NCBI GenBank assembly: GCA_964016885.1
Contig: OZ024759.1
Location: 31,682,001 to 31,746,000, forward strand
Direction: 5' to 3'
Source of the DNA: Eledone cirrhosa
Lineage: Eukaryota
Length of the DNA: 64,000 nt
Numbering within the stretch: the first letter of the stretch is position 1; each line of letters starts with the position of its first letter. Below the pieces are notes generated by a model that was not told the origin of the DNA, searched no databases, and saw only the letters and a program-made list of their open reading frames with translations. Shown here piece by piece: positions 28,148-62,982 of the stretch. A program made the position numbers and the translations under genes.

Positions 28148-31100
28148 CACATACACTTACACACACACTCATGTGTCTATAATGTTTATGCTTTTGTAAT
28201 TTGTTAGGTGATGCAAAGAAGACCTCAGCTAGTCGGTCATCATCGCGGCAGTCCTTAGCCAAAAGTGCACCCAAAGGTAAAGGACGGCAGAGTAGAGGAG
28301 TTGGAGAGGAGGAGGAGGAGGAGGAGGAGGAAGAAGTAGAAGAAGAAGAGGAGGAGAAAGAGGAGGAAGAGGAGGAAGTGTCTGAAGAAGAGGAGGTGGC
28401 CACCCCCACCGTCACTGCTGTGAAAGGGCGGAGCCGGTCAAGAGGTCAGCCCGAAGTTAAAGACACTACACCCCAAGTCCGGGGTGGTAGAGTGGGTCGA
28501 TCCCAAGCTGCAGCAGAGAAGAAGACCCAGAAGGCCAGGTCTGCAGCTGCCAGTAAAGAGGAAGAGGAGGAGGGGGCTGGAGATGAGCAAGAAGAGGAGG
28601 CAGAAGAAGAGAAGAAGAGTAAAAATCAAAATCGGGCTGGGTCGAGGAGTCGGAGATCAACGGGTCGGAAATTGGAGGATGTAGTGACGGAGGAAGCACC
28701 AAAAGGTAGAACAGCGAGATCCAGAAGTAGGGGCCAGGGGAAGAAAGCTACAGAAGAGGACGGCGACAACAAAGATGCCGATGAGGAAGCGAAGGAAGCT
28801 GTTGCTGAAGTGCCCACGGGGCGCTCTTCTCGAGCGAGAAGCAGGGGACAATCAAAGGAACAGGGTGTGGTTAAGTCGGTGATGCCAGAGCTGGAAGTGG
28901 AAGAGAAAGGGAAAGCAACAGAACCAAAACCACCAGAGACAGAGAAGATAGCCGGCAAAGATGCCAAGCAGGAAAGTAAAAATAAAGAGGTGACCGATGT
29001 CGACCAAGTAATTGATGCTGGTCCGGAGAGTGCGAAGAAGAGCAGTGATGCTGACATAGTCGTAAAATCTGCTGAAGACACGGAGCAGTTCAGTTCAGAT
29101 CAGAAATCTCGCAAACGGATGGCAGGTGATGTTGAAAAGTCACCGGAGAGTGTCTCGCCGGCTTCGAAAAAGAAGCGTGTTGCTACAGGAGGCGCTGCTG
29201 TTGCTCCTGCCACCACAGAGGTGATGGTCACCCCAGCAAAGGGCTCAATCTCCCCAGCAAAGGGCTCAATCTCCCCAGCAAAGGGCTCAATCTCCCCAGC
29301 AAAGGGCTCAATGACGACTGAAGTTGCTCTTGTACCAGATGATAAAAAAGAGGGTGCTGTTGAGGTTGGCAAGGACAAGGAGAGTAGCGCTGATGAGAAA
29401 AAGCTAAAGTTGACCGATCCTGAGAAGAAATCTACCGAAGGAGAAAAGGTACAACAGACGCCAACATTTGGAAAGACTTCAGTGTTTTCTGAATCGGCGA
29501 AAGCAACGGAAAGGATTGAAACTGACATGGAAGTGGATGTTGTGGAAAGTCCGGCAAAGGTGTGTCAGGTGCTGTCACCCAAGAAAACTCCCACAAAGCA
29601 ACCTCCTGTGGCGGCGGTGGTTTCGTCACCAACCAAGAAAGCTGAACCGCAAGCAGCAGCAGCAGCAGCAACAACAACAGCAACAGCAACAACAACAACA
29701 ACAACAACAGCAGCAACAACTACCACCACTACCACTACTACCACCACCACCTGTGCTGCTACTATTCTAACAAGTAAACCAACAGAGGCAACAGTTAAAG
29801 TGAGTCCCCCGTCAGCCGGGGTTATTGATCTGTCGCGGAGTCCGGTAAAGCACCAGACAGAAGTTAACATATCAAAAGCACCACCTGTAGCAGTTGCGCT
29901 TCATGCATCGTTAGGGCCTGCACAACAAAAACAGAAACCAGGGGAGTCTCCGTTAAAGATGACCCCTAAGTTGCCTGTGAACCTTACGAAATGTTCAGAA
30001 CCAGTAAAAACAGTTTCTAAATCAGAGCCGACTGTAATTGCAGCGAAATCTTCCCCCACCCCAGCAGCCTGTGTTCCTAAAGCAGTAGAAGTGTCTGTTG
30101 TGTCATCCTCATTGACTAAACCTAATTCCCAGGCTGTTTCTGCCAAACCAATCCAAGGTGCCCCTCCTAAGTTGTCATCACCAACAAGATCTGAATCTGT
30201 TGTGACCAGTCGAGCTGCTGTAGCTGCACCACCAGTAGCCAGCAACGCAGGGGTGTTAAAACCTCACCCCCAGCCGTCTGATAAAACTGTCAAGCCCTCT
30301 ATAACTCAACCTCTCAGCATGGTTAGCGCAAAGACCCCTGTCATTCAGGCTCCAAGTGCCAAGCCTCTTGTTGCCGTGGAGAAGACTCCACCACCACCAC
30401 CACCAACAACAAAAATCACAACAGCAACAAGTCCCAATGTGACTTCGTCCCCTTCGAAGCCTCCTGCAGTGCCTTGTGTTGGCAGTTTCCCTGCTAAATC
30501 CCCACTAAAGCCTGAACTTAAGCCACACAGTCCTTCTATTATGGCCTACTCACCACCTAAACAACATTTCAGTGAAACAGCTTCATCTGGATCTCCCATC
30601 AGATCTCACAATGTCACCATGCATGGCTCACCTGTTAAGCTACCAAATCCTGTCACCTCCACTTTCTCACCTGCCAAGTTACCCGATAAAACGTCGTTAC
30701 CTCAGAGACCTCCTGAGGGAAAATCACTAACGATGCCACCGAAGACAACAGGTGTCGATTTATCATCAAAGCTACCAGGTCACAGTTCGTCACCCCAGGC
30801 CCCCAAGATAATGGGTTACTCATCTTCACAGGTACTACCTGTGAAATCCCCACCTGGCCATCACAGCACTTTGTCGGCTGTAACTACAAAACCTGGCAGT
30901 GTTGAAGCTTTTCCAGGAAAACCTTGTCCAACTCCGATGGGTTCTGCCAGGCCCACTGAATCAATGTCCATGGTTTCTAATGTAAAAAACCCACCTCAGT
31001 TTTCACCAAAGGATAAACAGCCAATTTCTACAAGAATACCAGCTACTGGGGTCATTACTGGAGGTTCTATTGTTGCACGAGACATAAGCCCTTCACAGAC

Positions 31101-34100
31101 CCGAGATATGTCAGTGAAACCGCCTCATGCTGGTTGTACTTCACATCCTATATCGATACCTCACACCGGTTTCTCGAAATCAGCTATGCCAGCGCCTGCC
31201 CCCCTTTCTATGTCCACCTCACACCAAAGGGTACCTATGAATAAACCAAGCCCGGATTTCTCTGCCGGTAAACCAACCGTTGCAACTTCATCCCCGACTA
31301 AAGTGACTCTGAAACCAAACAGCCCAGTAACAGATGGGAAGCAACATCCAGTTGCTATGCCTTCTTCAATGCTTATTAAAACTGGACCCCAGCATATCGG
31401 TTCTCTTCGCGGCAGAGTACTTCCTCCTGCGCAGATGTCTGTGAAACCAGTTTCTACCACTGGCCCTTTGTTGTCAACCACACACGTCGATACGAAGCTG
31501 GCCCCTAGTACCACTGCCGAACAACACAAGCAGCAGCAGGGCAGCAAACCTTACTATTCAGACAAGCCCTCACAGCATGTGACTGGATCGTCAATGAAGC
31601 CTATCTTGCTATCTGATGCAGCCCAAACAAACCCTGTCTATTATTCGTCATCATCCAAGCCGCCAATGTCGACATCCGACATGTCAGCCAGCAAGTCATT
31701 TTCTCCAACATTCCCTTCGAATCCAATGCTTATGTCCGCAATGCCAAAGACCCCTACATCTCCAGCTGATAGTGCCGCCATGTCACGACACATGGGAACA
31801 ATGTCGCCGAAACCGGTCACCCCAGAAGCACATCATACCAGTGCTGGTTTTGCCCGGCTTCCTGGCAGCCCATCTCTAAGTATTCCTGCATCTAAACCCC
31901 CCATGGCCCATTCAACCAAACCCCAGATTACTCATATGACAGGTGTGGTTACCTCCAAGGCTGCAGTTGCTCATGGTACCAGCATTTCATCTGGTAAGCC
32001 CCAAATTACTCACATGATGGGCACAGTCCCTCCAAAGGTTTCATCTCCAACCCCAATCCTCTCTAAACCCCCTGTCACCCACATGGCCGGGGTCGCTTTA
32101 CAGAAACCACAGGTGACTCACATGGCTGGGTTAGCACCCCCAAAACCTCAGGTGCAATCCACTGAAGGTGGCCTTTTATCAAAGCCGGTTGTTTTACACG
32201 CTGTGGGTTCAGCTGCGAAACCGATGCCAGGGCACCCTTCTGGTCAGTCCCCTTCACTGGGACTGTCACCAAGCAAGATGGACATGTCACACGGAAGCAA
32301 CACATCCACAGATTCAGACAAAGCAAAGCCTTTACAAGAGAAGTCTCAACCCCAGCCTTTTCCCGGCGTGGAATACTCCAAATATATGTCTCCAGTGAAG
32401 AGTTCTGATGCTGGTTGTGGAAGGTCGCCTGTCGATATGACCCAGAAGCCTTCCTATGGTGGACATTACATGTCTAAATCTGAGGGACCACACTCATGCA
32501 TGGCTCCCAGGCCACAGGCCTCGCCAGTCAGCTATGCTAAAGGTTTTACTTTAGAACAGAAATGTGAGCAGCTGCAGCAGCATCCCCAGAAGTCAGTTGT
32601 TCAGACAGTGCGAGCGTCGGAGCCTCAAGAAGTTAATCTGTCTGCCAATAAACCCAAGACTCTTTTGCCTACACCTAGCAACATGGATCAATACAGGAAG
32701 GACGCGGTTGATTTAAAGTCATCTCCAGCGAAATCCGCAACCAACAGCCAAGACTGTTTCAAAATGAAATCGACAGTCCCAGAAGCTGGCATAGTCGCAG
32801 GTAAACCACTCAGCGGATCTCATGACAAAGTGCCTAGTCCAGCAGTCGTATCGAATCCAAAGACTGGGGTTCCGATAACAGGTTGTGGAACACCGACTGT
32901 TGTAACCAGCGGCGGCCACGACAACAGCAAAATGATGATGATGTCAGCGAAAACTCAGCATTTCACAGGAGGCCCTGTAAATACACCTTCACAACTTAAC
33001 AAGCCTGCACACCTAGCAACACCGAGTCATCCAGTCAGCACTTTTGCCCCCACAAGTGCTCCTACCCTGCCTCTTTCTACATTAGTTACTTCGTCATCTT
33101 CATCCTCGTCGTCGCCTTCGTCGGGGCCTCCGAAAGCTACTTCTTCTGTCGACGTCATCAATGGCACTAAGATGTCAACAGAATCTCAACAAGTATGTGA
33201 TCTAAGCAAGAAGCGCAAAGCCGATTCGTCAGAGAACGACCCGCACAGCTCGAAAAAGGCTCACAGTGCCGAGGAAGAAGCAAATCTGGTTGCTAACGGC
33301 CAGAAAATCAGCGGAAGTTCTCAGCAAGCTTCGAGGGTCACTGTTGAAACCAAAGTCCAGAAGTCTGAACCTATGGAGGTTTCTCAATCCGTTAGCAGTA
33401 GTAGTTGTAGTAGTAGCAGCAGTAGTAGTAGTAGTATTTGTGGTACTACACAGAGCAGCTCAAATGTCGATGCTTTACTCAAAGACTATGTTGTTGTCAA
33501 TAAAGATGATGTCCCTGCCAAAGACAGCGTCGAAGTTCGGCAGTCGCTGCCCAAGTCTCCTCCTTGTAGTAACCCCCCCAAACCCCAGTTGAAGCATCCA
33601 CTGCCTACGTCTCAGCAGAGCACAATGCCCCCTCAGTTGCCTAAACCCCCAGCAAGCTCGGCTGGGCTGATGAGTTGTGGTCCTTTAGCAGGAAGTAGCC
33701 CTAATAGAGACACTTTGCTCAGTCGCACTTTTAGATTTAACCCAACCCTCCCCAACAACACAATTATGGACAAGAGCAGGCAGTTCAGTGTAGTCTCGTA
33801 CAATATACTTGCCGACTGCCATTTCAACAAGCTTCTGAAAGACAGATATCCTGCTGAAGAAAAGCAATTTCTGGAGCTCCCAGCTCGTCACAAACGGTTA
33901 ATGGCTGAGCTATCCTACATTGATGCTGATGTTGTATGTTTGCAAGAAGTGGAACCGGAGTACTATAGCAAAACCCTCTCTCCTGATATGCAAAAGTAAG
34001 TTGAAATTCATTATTCTGTTTTGTTAATTCTTAATGTCCTGTATCGCATGAAATCAAAATCTTGAAAAAAACAAAACATCACAATGATTGCATCACAGTA

Positions 34101-52654: not shown

Positions 52655-53635
52655 CATTGCATAATTTCGGAAACATTTTTTCACGCTCAGAGTTGCTGAA
52701 GAATAGAACAAACTTCCTGCATCAGTTGTTAGCTGTCGAGACACTGCATCCTTTAAAACCTCCATGGAACAAACTCCCTGCATCAGTTATTAGCTGTCGA
52801 GACACTGCATCCTTTAAAACCTCCATGGAACAAACTACCTGCATCAGTTATTAGCTGTCGAGACACTGCATCCTTTAAAACCTCCATGGAACAAACTCCC
52901 TGCATCAGTTATTAGCTGTCGAGACACTGCATCCTTTAAAACCTTCATGGAACAAACTCCCTGCATCAGTTATTAGCTGTCGAGACACTGCATCCTTTAA
53001 AACCTCCATGGAACAAACTACCAGCATCAGTTGTTAGCTGTCGAGACACTGCATCCTTTAAAACCTCCATGGAACAAACTACCTGCATCAGTTATTAGCT
53101 GTCGAGACACTGCATCCTTTAAAACCTCCATGGAACAAACTCCCTGCATCAGTTATTAGCTGTCGAGACACTGCATCCTTTAAAACCTCCATGGAACAAA
53201 CTCCCTGCATCAGTTATTAGCTGTCGAGACACTGCATCCTTTAAAACCTCCATGGAACAAACTCCCTGCATCAGTTATTAGCTGTCGAGACACTGCATCC
53301 TTTAAAACCTCCATGGAACAAACTCCCTGCATCAGTTATTAGCTGTCGAGACACTGCATCCTTTAAAACCTCCATGGAACAAACTCCCTGCATCAGTTAT
53401 TAGCTGTCGAGACACTGCATCCTTTAAAACCTCCATGCTTCCTGAGATTCGCCAACACTACACCTAATATTCCCCCTCCATACACACACACACACACATG
53501 TATATCATGACTCATACACTATTCACTTCCCTGACATTTGTATATTATTCTAAGTACTATACATGCACCTTTGATGAGTTGTAGTGCACCTGAGCACTGT
53601 ACACTGTACACAGTAATTTCATTCATTATTATTAT
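52655..53635 (+). mobile_element. CR1/L2-like LINE 3' end with internal 61-bp tandem amplification; second 3'UTR copy at ~53980-54140
   Basis: HFFTLRVAE..NKLPASVVSCRDTASFKTSMLPEIRQHYT* resembles the CR1 ORF2 end FF..RV...WN.LP..VV....L..FK; (ATT)n tail. Confidence 0.7.
52706..53437 (+). repeat. Tandem array, 12 x 61 bp, nearly identical units
   Basis: Unit ctccatggaacaaactccctgcatcagttattagctgtcgagacactgcatcctttaaaac. Confidence 0.95.
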
Positions 53636-54803
53636 ATGTGATAACCCGTCTAACCCATCCAGCTGGATCAGTTGGAGACAATTGCTTCTGACAGGACCTG
53701 TTGGAAGGAGTGTTTGAGGACTCCGCCCCTCCCCCCTCTCAGGAATAAGTGACTGAAGAAGACAAAGAAGAAGAGAAGAGAGAAAAGAAACACTCAGTTG
53801 TCGTTTTTGCAAATCTTTATTTCCCACTGAATCGTCTGACGAGGGAAATTGGAAATCCTGCAATAGTTATGTTTACCAAATAAATCTCTATCTGAAGGAC
53901 TGAGTTCACAAGTCCCTGTTGTAAGTATACAAATGGAATAACCAGGGATACAAGATAGACTGATGCAATAAGATTTAACTAAATATCCCCCCTCCATACA
54001 CACGGACACATGTATATCGTGACTCATACACTGTTCACTCTCTTCACATTTCTACATTATTCTATGTACTATACATGCACCTTTGATGGGTTGTAGTGCA
54101 CCTGAGCACTGTACACATTAATTTCATTATTATTATTATTATATAAAAATTAAACAGATATTTTATATTTCGGAGGTGAACTTGTCTGGCAAATGACTTG
54201 ATCTAAGATCATGGTGTGTTGAAACTAAAGCAATTATATTGGGGAAAGAGTCATTTTAGCCACACTTGTACATGTCTGGCAAGTGATTTGATCTGAGAAT
54301 GTGTTATGTTGAAACTAAAACTAGTTAATCATTTTAGCCATCCAAATAACACACACAAAAAGCTGTTAAGTTCACTTTACATTTATTCGTTGGTGTCAAC
54401 ATTTTCGTCGTGCTGCTGGCTACCTGGTCGATGATACGGCTCTCTGTAGAGATTAAAAGAACCTAAGTCAAACTCACAGGTACGTTTATGTAAATTTTTA
54501 TTTCAGGTAGATATGAGGGTAGCGCTGAGATTTAAAACATATTTAATAAACTTTCGGGTGTGTTTTATTCCAGGGTGAATTCATTTGAAGTGGTACATAG
54601 GTAGCGCTGAGATTTAGAATAGACACAGATTTAATGAAATAAGTGAAACTTTCGATGTGTGTTTATTCCAGGACGAATTCATTTGAAGAGGTAGGTAGCT
54701 AGGGAACATTGAGATTTAATATAAAATAGACAGGAATTAAAGTAAAAGTAATGAAACTATTGATTGTCGCGGTTGAACGAAGCGTGTCTAAATTTTAACA
54801 GCG

Positions 54804-55931
54804 ATGTATAATAAGAAGAGAAACAAGGAGGAAAATAATACTGCAGATTCTGTGAATGGAGTGAGAAAGTCTGCGATGAGGAATGTAAAGGTAAATAATA
54901 ATAAAACCAAGAGAAATGAGAAATTTTTGAATGATTTGGTAGAACATTTGAAAAAAGGGGCGGGTGAAATGAATGACAACCGTGAGCGCCGTCTGTCGGT
55001 GGCGACAGCAGTTGTGCCGCCTGGCAGTGGTGAAACATCAACAAGAAAACATCAGAGGAACAAAGGAATTGTTTCTACTGCCGACAATATATGGACTGTT
55101 ACTTGTGGAAACTATAGTAGCTACTGTAATAGTAGTACTAGTAGTGGTGGTAATAGTTGTACTACTGTTGCTAATACTATCACTAATAATAGTAATAGTA
55201 GTAATAATAGCAGCAGCACCAACGCTTCCAGAAAAGACCAGAGCAGGTTCACAACCAAACCGAGGATGTCCAAAGACACGGCACGGAAGAGCACCACTGC
55301 CGTGAAAAAAACCCCGCCCCCCAAAACGCCCGAAGATGACCAAAACTCAGCCGCTTCTTCATCATCATCATCGTCATCATCCGCCAATAACAACAACAAC
55401 AATAACAACAACAACAACGAAGAAAGCAAAGATGTGGATTCGACGACGGACAACAAATCGAATCATGTTGATGGCGAAGATCCACCAGAATTGGAAACCG
55501 AACCAGAACTGGAATTGGAACTATCGGTGTCTTCTCCGATGTCCTTCGGTTCCGTCAACCCTGACACTAACCCCGATGTCAACCCTGATATTAACGACGT
55601 GAGCAATCAAAGCTCCGTTGTTAATAAAACCCAGGAGAATCCAGTGGATGGTACTCGTGAAATAGCCAAACCTAATGGTACAACTCGCAGCAAAAAGGGT
55701 GAGAACATTCCAAAGAGACGTGGAACCCGGCAACTGACCAGAGTTAGGGAAATGGACCGAGAACTGGCCGGCTGGATTAACGGTTATTACACCAATGACA
55801 GACTTGATGAACTTACACGGGACATGATCACAGACAGGGCCAGAGAGATAGCTAAAGAGAAGAACATTTTAGATTTTGCCGGTACTACTAACTGGTTTAC
55901 CAGATTCCTTGGAAGGAATTTCTCAGATGCG
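54804..55931 (+). CDS. Gene 3 large first coding exon: low-complexity region, KDTARKST peptide, CENP-B/pogo-type HTH at the 3' end
   Basis: 376 open codons ending in MDRELAGWI...LTRDMITDRAREIAKEKNILDFAGTTNWFTRFLGRN; gtgagt donor at 55932. The true start could be a downstream ATG such as 55266. Confidence 0.75.
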
Positions 55932-55936
55932 GTGAG

Positions 55937-55969
<33 letters not shown>

Positions 55970-57588
55970 TTGTTTATTGTTAATGTTAATAAATGTTGTG
56001 TTTGATATATTCAATGAAGTAGCAACAAATATAACCTTTAATCACAGAATCTATCACTTCCTTCCTATCTCTGTATCACTTATGGTTTACCAGATTCCTC
56101 GGAAGGAATTTCTAAGATGCGGTGAGTGAGTATATATATATATGTATGTTTATTGTTTGTGTAGGGTTTTGTTGATATATTCAATGATGGAGCGACAAAT
56201 ATAACCTTTAATCACATAATCTATTCCTTCCTATCTCTGTATCACTATTTCTTTCTCTCTCTCCTAGATAGTATCCAACACTTATTTTCTTATTTTCCTA
56301 AAGATTCTGTCATTTATTAAAATAATCTTATCTGTAGTTTAAAAAAAAAAAAGATTAAAGAGAAAAGTCTTAGAAAACCAGACTCCGATAAAATTGGTGT
56401 TTGTGCTGGTCCATGCCTATATATATATATATACCCGAGGAAAGCTTTCCTGATGATTTCTCTCGAATGAAACAGTTCTAGTCCTGTAGAAGCCATTTCT
56501 ATATTAAATATTTATACTCTGCTTTGTATCGAGTACCTTACTTACTATGGTTACCCCCGATTGAACCCGGGATAAACATATATATGTGTGTATATATATA
56601 TATATATAATAGTGATGTTGGTGTGTTTAGATAGATTTAGTGCATTATATTTTTATATTTATAAGGTTCCCAGTAATAATAATTGTATGTGTTTATATTT
56701 CTATTCTGTAAGAATTATTCATTTACTATTATATATATTATTTGTGTCTATATTTTCATTCTGTATTATTATATTCATAGAAAAGTAATAATAATGATAT
56801 ATTTTGTGGTGACAATAAAGTTTATATTTAGATATATGAGAATGTTTTAAAAAAAAAAAAAATAGAAATGAGTACATCACTAAACCACTAAGCTTATTTA
56901 TAAAACTAAATTACTTACAGTTGACGATAGAAATAAATAAAAATATACGAATTATGATCATAATTACAAATATAATTATAAATATAATAATAATTATTAT
57001 TTACCAAGCATGAAATGAATGACTTTTGTAAAATAATAGCAACATATATTATATATAATTCGAAAGTAACTTCCTAAGGTTTGAAAAAAATATCGAAATA
57101 TTTTTATATTTCGTTAATTTAAAAGATTCTTTTGAACTTTCATCAATCGATGTTAAATTACCTTTATTCTAATTTCTTTTGGCTATCGTTTATCTTTTCA
57201 CTCTGTTTTAAACTGACAACTTTCACATCAAAACAAGCACAAAATGTTTTTAAATATTCTTTTATTTCCCCCTAATTTCCAATTTCCACTTTTCGTATTT
57301 GCACAAGTTGTTTTAATTTCTACAGAGACAACAAACAGCAACGTGAAAATATACAGAAATTAGGTTTAACCAAAGCAAAAATATATAAATTTAATTGTAT
57401 AATTGTTTAATTATATTTTTGTTTACTCTACAAGTACTGATAATATTTACTCATGCAAATATACACGATGTTTATATCGCCATGTGCATACACACACATG
57501 TATGTATGTATGTATGTATATATATATATATACACACACACACTATAATCACTCTTTCTCTCTCTATATATATAAACATATACACCTA

Positions 57589-59427: not shown

Positions 59428-61495
59428 GATATGTATATATATATATTGGGTCGTCAAGTATGAAATTTGTAGAAATTTGGTTGTTTTTTTTTTCTACAAA
59501 TTTCATACTTGATGGCCCAACATATATATACATTTCTGTGTATATATATGTGTGTGTATATATGTGTATTTATACTTACTTTCATTGTAATATATATATC
59601 TCTTCATTGGTAATGTATTGTTTTAGTGTGTTGTTTTCCCATTTACTTTTCACACACACACGCACACAATGAACTGTATCTGTAATTCCAAGGTACATCT
59701 TTGTCAAACACAGAGTCATGCTGAATCCAGCTGAGGATGTCATTAATAGGCCAAGTGTCTGTGGAATACTCAGCCACTTACACTAGGAGTGTACAGATAA
59801 ACAATCTAAAGTAGTGTGAGATCCATCATTGAATCATCTTCCTTCACCACCACCACCACCACGTTCACCACACCACCACCACCACCACAATCACAATCAT
59901 CATCATCATCATCCTGTTTATCTACTCCTCCTCATCATTGCCATCATCATCATCACCATCCTTTTTTTTCCATCCCCACCTTCATTCCCCATCACCACCT
60001 CCTTATCATCATCATTGTCATTGCCATCCTCTTCCTCATCATTGACATCACCATCCTTTTCTTTCCTCTCTATAATCACCATTCTCCTCACCACCATCAT
60101 CATTACCATCATCATCATCATCTCTGTGCTCCTTGTATCTTCTGCCATCATAATCACCATCCTTCTTTTCCTCATCATCACCATCATCCTGATGCCTGCA
60201 CTATATAGACAAGTTCCCTCCAGTACAGTTTCCTTCCACTTTTTCATTTTACTGTATCCTTTCCTTTGTGAAGTTCAGTAGCCTGAGAGAAGCCATTACT
60301 ACTTCTTTCTACACACATCTTCCTTGGTCTTCCTCTCCTGCAGCTTCCTTCCTACTTTAAACTTCTGGCATTTTCATCTCATTAAATCTTTCTCTTTTTT
60401 TTCTCTCTTTTGCAGAGTGTTAGTAAACAACTAAAAATGCTTTCTTTTGCAAATCCTGGGAAATTTATGGAAGATTTCGATCCAGAACGAAGTGCCAGGG
60501 AAATGCGTAAGATGAATCGCAGAATTTACAGAGAGAAGTATGTCTTTGTTGAACTATTTTTTTCATTTAGTGTTTTTTAATTGTGTTGCTTTAGTGGAGT
60601 CTGTGCTGCTGTATGGGTCTGAGACCTGGACACTGACCAAGAAACTCACTCAGATGGTGGATGGGTGCTACACGAGAATGCTGAGGATGGCTCTGAACAT
60701 TAATCAGTATACACTGAGGATGAAGAACTCAGAGCTGTACGGGAGCCTCCCAAAGGTCAGCTCAAGAGTAGCACAGAGGAGACTGAGGTTAGCTGGACAT
60801 GCTCACCGACATCCAGAGTTGACACTGCACTCAGTGCTCCTGTGGGAGCCCCTGCATGGACACACTGGAAGAGGAAGAACGAGGTTAACATATGTTGATG
60901 CCCTAAGGACAGGCACTGGTCTCTTAGAGACGCAGGACATGGCAGCGATAATGAGGGACAGAGACCGCAAGAGAGAACTCGTCCATCGATCTCGGGGAAT
61001 TTTTCCCGCCCTAGACATTGTGTGTAGTAAGGTTAGTGGAATGGCAATAATCGGTAGAGAGTAAAGTGGTCGTGTAGGTGACACAACAAAAAGTACCCAG
61101 TCCACACTGGAAAGTGGTTGTGTAGGAGATAGGCATTTTTATGGACCACATCAAATATTTGTGGGTTTTTTTTTACCTCTTTGCAGGTTCTCTAAGAACG
61201 TAACCCCCCACAAATACTAGGGGACAACTGTATATCACTGACACTTATTTATATTTCTGTTTGCAGTGTCAAGAAGAACCAGATGTACGATGAAGCCGGT
61301 CGGCTTCTTGATAACAGCAAAGATGTTTGTGACTGTTTGGATGAAGATTGTCCTGGTTGCCACTTCCCTTGTCGCAAGTGTGGCTCTGAAAAATGTGGCA
61401 CCGAGTGCCGCTGTAATCGGAAGTGGGTCTATGAGATGGTGGAGATTGAAGGTACCAATCTAGTGATAAACAATCCCTCCCTTACAATAGTTTAA
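54804..61495 (+). CDS. ARL14EP: Gene 3: ARL14 effector protein (C11orf46)-like with N-terminal disordered region and CENP-B-type HTH; ~492 aa in the minimal model
   Basis: Exons 54804-55931, 60416-60537, 61267-61495 join in frame (optional exon from 59196). C-terminus matches ARL14EP: LSFANPG...RE.R and YD..G.L...DVCDCLDEDCPGCHFPCRKCGSEKCGTECRCNRKWVYE.VEIEG. The link to the first exon is inferred from phase only. Confidence 0.7.
56444..56570 (+). ncRNA. Hammerhead-bearing repeat (family A), intact core, in an intron of gene 3
   Basis: gctttc CTGATGA t ttc tctc gaa t GAAACAG ttctagtc CTGTA gaagc. Confidence 0.68.
57980..58165. ncRNA. Inverted pair of family A hammerhead repeats forming a hairpin
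   Basis: Minus copy ~57980-58103 (CTGATGA, GATAC variant); plus copy 58101-58165 (ggcttc CTGGTGA...GAAACAG...CTGTA gaagcc). Confidence 0.6.
59196..59276 (+). CDS. Possible in-frame cassette exon of gene 3 (KGIQSCYTVLMTQKHVDCSSKPVLNKQ)
   Basis: ttccag acceptor, phase 0, open frame; donor either gtgacg at 59277 or gtacat at 59373. No recognisable homology. Confidence 0.3.
60416..60537 (+). CDS. ARL14EP: ARL14EP-like exon (SVSKQLKMLSFANPGKFMEDFDPERSAREMRKMNRR)
   Basis: Strong pyrimidine tract + tgcag; gtatgt donor; resembles ARL14EP LRSLQFTNPG...REKRRL. Confidence 0.88.
60585..61016 (+). mobile_element. RTE-clade LINE 3' fragment (gene 3 intron); same family at 44760-45005 (-) and 1275-1395 (+)
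   Basis: VESVLLYGSETW...RRLRLAGH...GRGR.RLTYVD; near-identical DNA at the other sites. Confidence 0.82.
61267..61495 (+). CDS. ARL14EP: ARL14EP cysteine-rich C-terminal domain exon
   Basis: CDCLDEDCPGCHFPCRKCGSEKCGTECRCNRKW; ttgcag acceptor; TAA. Confidence 0.94.
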
Positions 61496-61677
61496 TATAT
61501 GTATATATACTCGCATACTTACTCATATGCACACACACATACTTACATACATATACTATCTCTTTTACTTGTTCCAGCCCATCAGATGTAGCCATGCTGG
61601 GGTACTGCCATTACGTGTGTGTTTGTGTATATATACATATATATAATGTAACACACACACGCACATATGTGTGTGTG

Positions 61678-61761: not shown

Positions 61762-62982
61762 TTAGGTTGCACAGAAAGTTTTTTTGCCTTTTTCAAATCT
61801 TTATTGACTTTGGCATTTTTTAACATTAGGAAAATTTTACAAGTCAAAATAATCACTCCATCATTTGCGATCACCATCTGCCATCATTTAGGAAAGCACA
61901 TGATTCCATCTTTGTAGAATTCTTCTGGTTTCAATGCTAAGAATTCCGTCATCCACTGATTTAACTGGTCTTCATTGGCGAAGGTGTTTGATCTTTGATT
62001 GCATTGCTTATTGAGAGAAAATGTGATAGTCTGTAGGTGTAAGGTCTGTGATAGTCTGTAGCTGCATAACCACCCAAGCTAGCTCCAGCAGCTTCTCACA
62101 GGTCATTCTTGATGTAGGCAGCTGAGCTTTGTCTTGAAGGAATCAAACAAAACCATGGTGTGGCCGCACTTGTACGATTTTCCACACTAATCTGTCAAAT
62201 TGTTGGCAATAAACATCAGATGTTATCCTGCTTTTCAGTGGGAGCAGCTCGTAGTGATGACACCTTTCCAGTTCCACCAGATGCACAATAGGTTCTTGTG
62301 AGGGTGGAGGCCAACCTTTGCTTGCCACTGTGGTGCACTCACTTTATAGACCGACGATTGCTTGTACTTGACATCAATGGAGAGACAGCAATTTTTATCA
62401 CCAGTTGATTGTGTGACAGTAAGAGAGCAGAGAAGTTGTAGCAGCCACCTGGCATTTACAGTTATGCTCAGTCAGACTGAGGGGCACCCTTTTGTCCAGC
62501 TTGGACACCTTCCCTATTGCATGCATGTGATTGAGGATTGTTGTTTTCGATGCTCCAAGCACTTCGGAGAGTTGAAGTGATGTCTGGCCTAGATCGGGTT
62601 CTACCAGCTCGTGCAATTGTTTGTTATTGAAGTTGGATGGACGTGCCGCATGAAGTCCTGCATCTTCAAGGCTGTAATCACCAGAATGGAAGCATGTGAA
62701 CCAGTTCCTGGCACTGCGTTCAGACATGGTCTGCACCCAAATGCATTGTTAATGTGCCAACTAGATGCTGCTGCACTTGGGCCAGATTTTCTAGTCCTGA
62801 AGTAAACAGCTTCAAATAAGTGATTTGGATAGATCCAGGCTGCTTCCTCTTTGATGGCGTAACAGAAAATCATAAATGCACATAGTGCACTCCAACATTA
62901 CTTAGTGCATATGCACAACTTTCAACATTTCCAGAAAACTCTACCAAAATACCTCCTTTTGTAAAATGGCAGGAATTTTTTG

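Follow-up and report, generated by a model that had tools for sequence, protein, structure and literature searches.

A histone H3-like word in an octopod ARL14EP protein with a predicted DNA-binding domain is probably incidental

Does the peptide MSKDTARKST, encoded in a stretch of 64,000 nucleotides of Eledone cirrhosa DNA (hereafter the window), act as a mimic of the histone H3 tail, or is its likeness to H3 a product of chance? The original prediction placed it in an ARL14EP-like protein and proposed a methylation-dependent docking site or decoy. Its letters and coordinates are correct, with an ATG at 55266 and codons continuing to 55295, and so is the match to residues 4-11 of H3 (KQTARKST), seven of the eight letters being identical; counted from this Met, the ARK lysine is residue 8 and lies in register with H3K9, and Asp occupies the position of Gln5 of H3. 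The weak H3K27-like word VRKSA announced upstream is present as well, in the frame of the motif (Table 1). Three DNA-type runs, all of one sample that may be the same as that behind the assembly, span 54269-55345 with zero letters differing from the window; since they agree, an assembly slip at the motif is ruled out, and no more than that. We find that the word and its gene are real, that the word is probably not needed as a mimic and that the fusion of its host protein to a helix-turn-helix (HTH) domain is the better lead.

The gene that carries the word

The link to ARL14EP, which had been assumed, is shown by a single 954-letter contig of run X4 that joins 55430-55927, 60415-60537 and 61267-61555 across GT-AG junctions; because this contig connects the motif's exon to two ARL14EP exons, the motif gene is spliced into ARL14EP, and the three exons yield a 338-aa product without a stop. 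We read X4 as RNA-derived, given that one contig skips both introns and that the genome yielded no intronless copy of the HTH; no listed run is recorded as RNA.

The identity of the host protein is likewise upheld. PF14949 is matched on the two ARL14EP exons at 95.3 and 28.6 bits (curated cut-off 27), and the last two exons match PDB 8hfp_A, ARL14 effector protein (E 1e-24). In common with ARL14EP/C11orf46/ARLE-14, the protein has PF14949 and a cysteine-rich domain of 29 residues, which retains all nine Cys (9/9) as well as the Arg that corresponds to human R236 (codon at 61409); 21 of the 29 residues are identical to P0089 (260 aa), whose numbering matches human 209-237 in PMC6739341. It differs from C11orf46 in carrying a low-complexity tail and a CENP-B-type HTH in front, and in that its SETDB1 binding is only predicted. 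In the human protein the change R236H abolishes SETDB1 binding (PMC6739341), and the partner surface of the ARL14EP cysteine-rich domain is the MBD of SETDB1 (PMC13108219). By analogy, we infer that the cysteine-rich domain of the window would bind the SETDB1 MBD as in human. The structure of the human ARL14EP-SETDB1 pair has already been solved. A SETDB1-type Tudor match is present in the E. cirrhosa genome, and O. bimaculoides is reported to have orthologues of SETDB1 and UHRF1 (PMC9476566).

The N-terminal region of the coding exon is probably disordered: residues 1-132 of an orthologue have pLDDT below 50 in a model built from a 6-sequence alignment, and the window's own N-terminus is of low-complexity composition.

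Several repeats lie in and around the gene. At 56085-56260 there is a tandem copy of about 55895-56084 that takes in the exon end, its GT donor and the first part of the intron, and the X4 contig uses the first donor. The last intron holds a high-copy repeat (60560-61170) with very high contig depth and no Pfam match, whose reading we take to resemble the end of a LINE reverse transcriptase. On the minus strand, 61800-62540 is covered by a 4420-letter X4 contig with 3 differences and presumably resembles the end of a mariner transposase.

Table 1. Features of the motif gene and its upstream extension, in window positions
Feature	Position	Strand	Basis or remark
In-frame open extension, 154 codons, putative coding	54804..55265	+	ATGs at 54804, 54876 and 54969
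VRKSA, weak H3K27-like word	54861..54875	+	Same frame as motif; translated only with ATG 54804
MSKDTARKST	55266..55295	+	Sequence; without conservation in orthologues
Coding exon: low-complexity N-terminal region (Ser, Asn runs), then HTH	55266..55931	+	Phase-0 donor GCG/GTGAGT
CENP-B/Tc5 (pogo-type) helix-turn-helix, one copy	55728..55928	+	Pfam PF03221 E 0.0029, structural match
ARL14EP exon, first part of PF14949	60416..60537	+	Pfam, X4 contig, reading frame
Last coding exon with cysteine-rich domain (61328-61414)	61267..61495	+	PF14949 E 3.9e-27; PDB 8hfp_A E 1e-24

Conservation, chance and the start of the protein

The nearest named proteins are those of Octopus sinensis, O. vulgaris and O. 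bimaculoides, with which the window protein groups at a support of 98/98 in a 14-row tree. The comparison of TARKS with its flanks, put forward at the outset as a check on the motif, goes against it. The segment reads MSKDTARKSTTAV in the window, MSKDMMTVQKDTGAM in O. sinensis, the same but ending in I in O. vulgaris, and MSKDMTTVLKNTGAM in O. bimaculoides, so that TARKSTTAV of the window stands against TVQKDTGAM (O. sinensis) and TVLKNTGAM (O. bimaculoides), O. vulgaris differing from O. sinensis in the last letter. The flanks MSKD and KTPE are kept, whereas 3/3 orthologues have other letters in place of the A, R and S of TARKS, these being three species of one genus of which two are nearly identical in the motif segment; the motif is therefore less conserved than its flanks. 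Four letters of the segment, T, K, T and A, persist in Octopus (T-x-x-K-x-T-x-A), so the ARK lysine itself may matter. Relative to O. bimaculoides, the differences that make the motif (V/A, L/R and N/S) amount to one base change each; relative to O. sinensis, one of the three needs two. Identity to O. sinensis is 62/67 in the HTH, 111/117 in the ARL14EP part and 35/45 over residues 56-100.

Across 98 fetched homologue records, a redundant and partly fragmentary set of which 89 have the cysteine-rich domain, ARK[ST] and TARK are both absent, and ARK[ST] is also missing from all six frames of the two paralogue loci fetched. No Argonauta orthologue of the motif gene, as distinct from its paralogue, was retrieved. 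Because the relative P0003 has no alignable motif segment, a gain in this lineage and a loss in Octopus cannot be told apart. An inserted histone gene fragment was considered as the source of the word and rejected, as the segment and the Octopus orthologues are collinear and a DNA search of 54740-55420 matched only itself and simple repeats.

Given the composition of the motif protein, the expected number of matches at 7/8 or better is 6.7e-6, and the expected counts of TARKST and ARK[ST] are 3.5e-5 and 0.012, respectively. Genomes encode some tens of thousands of proteins; the match is rare for one protein named beforehand and is to be expected when the whole proteomes of many genomes are scanned with a free choice of histone words. 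When the genome was scanned with a loose DNA pattern for TARKST, 369 matches were counted and the reversed control had 748; exact TARKST is encoded in 20 of the first 100 matches listed (counted by eye), some of which are probably histone genes; such loose counts say little about proteins. One published scan found a looser G9a-type four-residue motif in more than 17,000 proteins (PMC10611923), and no base rate is given in the accessible part of PMC11703355. Within the window, the only other ARK[ST] is a TARKS at about 33296, out of frame in a 1938-codon open reading frame. The latter is a low-complexity exon (28183-33999, plus strand) with a weak endonuclease/exonuclease/phosphatase domain at its end (E 0.0022), which we take to be PDE12/Angel-like.

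In terms of chemistry the word fares better. G9a has the consensus RK/ARK and the minimal site TARKSTG, and the Arg beside the Lys is essential (PMC8541646). TARKST matches 6/7 positions of that site as six contiguous residues, with the RK core in an ARK[S/T] context and Thr in place of the seventh residue, Gly; in view of this fit, methylation of the ARK lysine is plausible. Of the proposed docking site or decoy, the methylation thus remains plausible, and a needed role is disfavoured by the lack of conservation.

The suggestion that the peptide is N-terminal, like a real H3 tail, is sound as to the in-frame Met at 55266 and doubtful as to the true N-terminus. The frame of the motif is open for 158 codons upstream, with no stop in it as compared with 10 and 31 in the other frames, and three in-frame ATGs occur there; the motif may accordingly be residues 1-10 or lie as deep as residues 155-164, and a free H3-like N-terminus is doubtful. 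The upstream frame stays open in 0/20000 shuffles and its 106 codons outside the simple repeat in 2/20000, a rarity that has to be set against the 77 of 6725 stop-free runs of the window that reach 106 codons. The annotated starts of the three Octopus orthologues are all at MSKD. An X4 contig on 55063-55170 has a depth similar to that of the spliced contig (3.7 and 4.8), from which the transcript probably extends at least 200 bases upstream of Met 55266. Among the X4 pieces listed, none lies over 55266-55295 or over the upstream ATGs, the nearest being at 55063-55170 and from 55430 onward, and the nil X4 cover over 54421-55034 is no evidence on the start site. Counted from Met 55266, seven residues precede the lysine and the free first two residues of H3 are without equivalent; in H3 numbering, eight residues precede K9.

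Upstream of the open frame, inspection by eye shows a short unit of about 80 bases duplicated at 54170-54330 and one of about 85 bases triplicated at 54500-54750; both contain several GT and AG sites, and these units may hold 5' exons or a promoter. Further upstream, 52706-53437 is a tandem array of 12 copies of a 61-base unit with 98% matches.

A CENP-B-type helix-turn-helix fused to ARL14EP

The exon of the motif also encodes a CENP-B-type HTH that the original prediction had missed. Residues 155-221 are modelled as three helices (pLDDT 86), and among 48,161 chains their best structural match is 1hlv_A, the second HTH of CENP-B (Z 9.8, rmsd 2.4, 62 aligned residues, 21% identity; next row Z 6.2), which is also the top Foldseek row, there not significant (E 0.73). 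PF03221 scores 18 bits on the window HTH, below the cut-off of 22.2, and is above it in P0003 and P0041 (25.7 and 23.4 bits). A profile search of 1.84 billion representatives returned 17 matches, two from this cephalopod HTH family at about 1e-38 and 15 from outside it, 13 of which match PF03221. In the ESM Atlas only leads below 0.9 were obtained, one with PF03221; searched by sequence with the HTH profile, the PDB yielded no relative, and the full-length orthologue model (mean pLDDT 49) had no clear match in fold searches. We predict that the domain contacts DNA.

The likeness to HTH proteins derived from CENP-B, pogo or Tc5 is one of fold, the second HTH of CENP-B being closest, and also of sequence, most of the nearest relatives outside cephalopods being PF03221 proteins. 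CENP-B has two HTHs, whereas the window protein has one: a first HTH (CENP-B_N or BrkDBD) and a DDE domain were undetected in the 381-codon reading (E <= 0.1) and in full-length orthologues (E <= 0.01), and the remaining exons (<= 111 aa) are occupied by PF14949. With no first HTH, the protein may bind DNA weakly or depend on a partner to do so. A parent pogo transposon was not found in the genome (2 matches among 20 candidates).

The 3.0 Gb genome has three PF14949 loci among 8 candidates. Besides the motif gene there is a paralogue at C14:42563173-42566587, whose HTH shares 65% identity with that of the motif gene and is followed some 3 kb downstream by an ARL14EP exon, and a third ARL14EP at C5:79389170-79389439, an intronless-looking 306-codon frame on the minus strand with no HTH seen by eye, which is like P0023 of O. 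bimaculoides and is possibly a retrocopy. Among named proteins the HTH-ARL14EP fusion was encountered only in octopods: the HTH was found in 0/45 other PF14949 proteins scanned (E <= 0.01), four of which (P0016, P0029, P0053 and P0094, including scallop, oyster and prawn) have an N-terminal THAP instead, a second kind of DNA-binding domain joined to this predicted SETDB1-binding module. A scallop THAP isoform and a THAP-less Pecten protein diverge just before a conserved KQL stretch, at the position of the window's phase-0 intron, a coincidence that suggests an exchange of the first exon.

UniRef labels the O. bimaculoides proteins HTH CENPB-type, so the architecture is already in databases; in the open literature searched we found neither the HTH-ARL14EP fusion nor an ARL14EP mimic described. 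Octopus is reported to have pogo-derived CENPB genes (PMC10027918); 'ARL14' does not appear in the main text of that paper, and its supplements may list the motif gene. KRAB fusions provide known cases of a transposase DNA-binding domain spliced to a repressor module (10.1101/2020.05.07.082677). KRABINER-type KRAB-transposase fusions share with the window protein the splicing of a transposase-type DNA-binding domain to a host repression module; they differ in taking the KRAB-TRIM28 route, whereas for the window protein direct SETDB1 binding is predicted, with one HTH, no DDE detected and no parent transposon found (10.1101/2020.05.07.082677).

Readings of the word and their meaning for SETDB1 targeting

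Our preferred reading, to which we give a probability of roughly 70%, is that TARKST arose incidentally, and in a restricted lineage, from a few point changes in the front of octopod ARL14EP, which changes fast and is predicted to be disordered. The HTH would hold DNA and tether an H3K9 methyltransferase complex, the cysteine-rich domain would hold the SETDB1 MBD and thereby make the protein a DNA-tethered SETDB1 adaptor, and the tail before and between the domains would drift, with TARKST as one outcome. The ARKS lysine may well be methylatable by a G9a/GLP-type enzyme, to judge from the consensus fit and the nearness to such enzymes; any such methylation would be a tolerated and dispensable side reaction, given that Octopus does without the word. 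What speaks against an incidental origin is a match of so low an expectation in a family tied to the H3K9 pathway, and H3K9 mimics are known to cluster in proteins of that pathway. The narrower proposal that the protein is a DNA-tethered SETDB1 adaptor alone, with no working mimic, is tentative and somewhat short of even odds.

The main rival, a working mimic peculiar to this lineage, either gained recently or old in octopods and lost in Octopus, would be a substrate of a G9a/GLP-type enzyme or SETDB1 and would dock HP1, CDYL, MPP8-like proteins or UHRF1, closing a feedback loop on SETDB1. We consider this unlikely, even though six contiguous residues with the essential Arg fit the G9a minimal site (PMC8541646), the orthologue region is predicted disordered, the low per-protein expectation holds, the Tudor match and the SETDB1 and UHRF1 orthologues of O. 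bimaculoides supply candidate partners, the SETDB1 cofactor ATF7IP has an N-terminal mimic (PMC6172828) and SETDB1 has one of its own (10.1101/2025.10.22.683908). Weighing more heavily are the absence of the word from 3/3 close orthologues and from all 98 homologue records, its accessibility by single-base changes, the Thr and Asp at the Gly and Gln5 positions and the abundance of the looser motif (PMC10611923). The comparison with established mimics points the same way: the sites of ATF7IP (K16), SETDB1 (K1170/K1178), G9a/GLP, WIZ and LIG1 (K126) have in common an ARKS/T core with Arg before Lys, and the window word resembles them in its setting too, a stretch of probable disorder within a protein predicted to belong to the heterochromatin pathway; however, K16 of ATF7IP is shared across vertebrates (PMC6172828), K1170 and K1178 of SETDB1 recur in many species (10.1101/2025.10.22.683908), and the sites of these two proteins are methylated and read, whereas the window word is absent in the nearest orthologues. 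H3K9 mimics are a known kind, and it is in conservation that the window word falls short of it. A more elaborate version, quite improbable in our view, would make the protein a cephalopod KRAB-like adaptor (HTH plus ARL14EP) with a lineage-added front H3K9 mimic, which finds DNA, recruits the writer and, once methylated, the reader, the THAP-ARL14EP proteins of bivalves and prawn being parallel inventions.

Two further readings dispense with histone chemistry or with translation. The word may be internal to a longer low-complexity N-terminus (up to 492 aa), its basic residues serving as a linker or nuclear-import sequence, as the long open frame with its three ATGs, the rarity of its 106 open codons among shuffles and the Lys-rich neighbourhood (KKTPPPKTP) would allow; the MSKD starts of the three annotated orthologues and the 77 comparable runs in the window make this highly improbable, and an internal position is in any case no bar to G9a-type methylation, LIG1 K126 and the SETDB1 sites being internal (PMC6172828; 10.1101/2025.10.22.683908). 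That the word is untranslated, either spliced out or in the 5' untranslated region, would agree with the gap in the X4 pieces listed over it, yet is scarcely credible for a segment that matches the beginnings of three Octopus proteins, shares the frame of the HTH and has X4 pieces of like depth on either side.

The incidental reading leaves the motif alone as a modest lead, such words arising easily and this one being unconserved; the mimic idea is nonetheless cheap to test, because the three orthologues from Octopus, which lack the word, offer natural controls. Of greater weight is the domain fusion. How lineages without KRAB proteins aim SETDB1 at DNA has been discussed for zinc-finger genes (PMC10547256), and an ARL14EP with its own predicted DNA-binding domain, kept across octopods in two paralogues, is a direct candidate for SETDB1 targeting in cephalopods.
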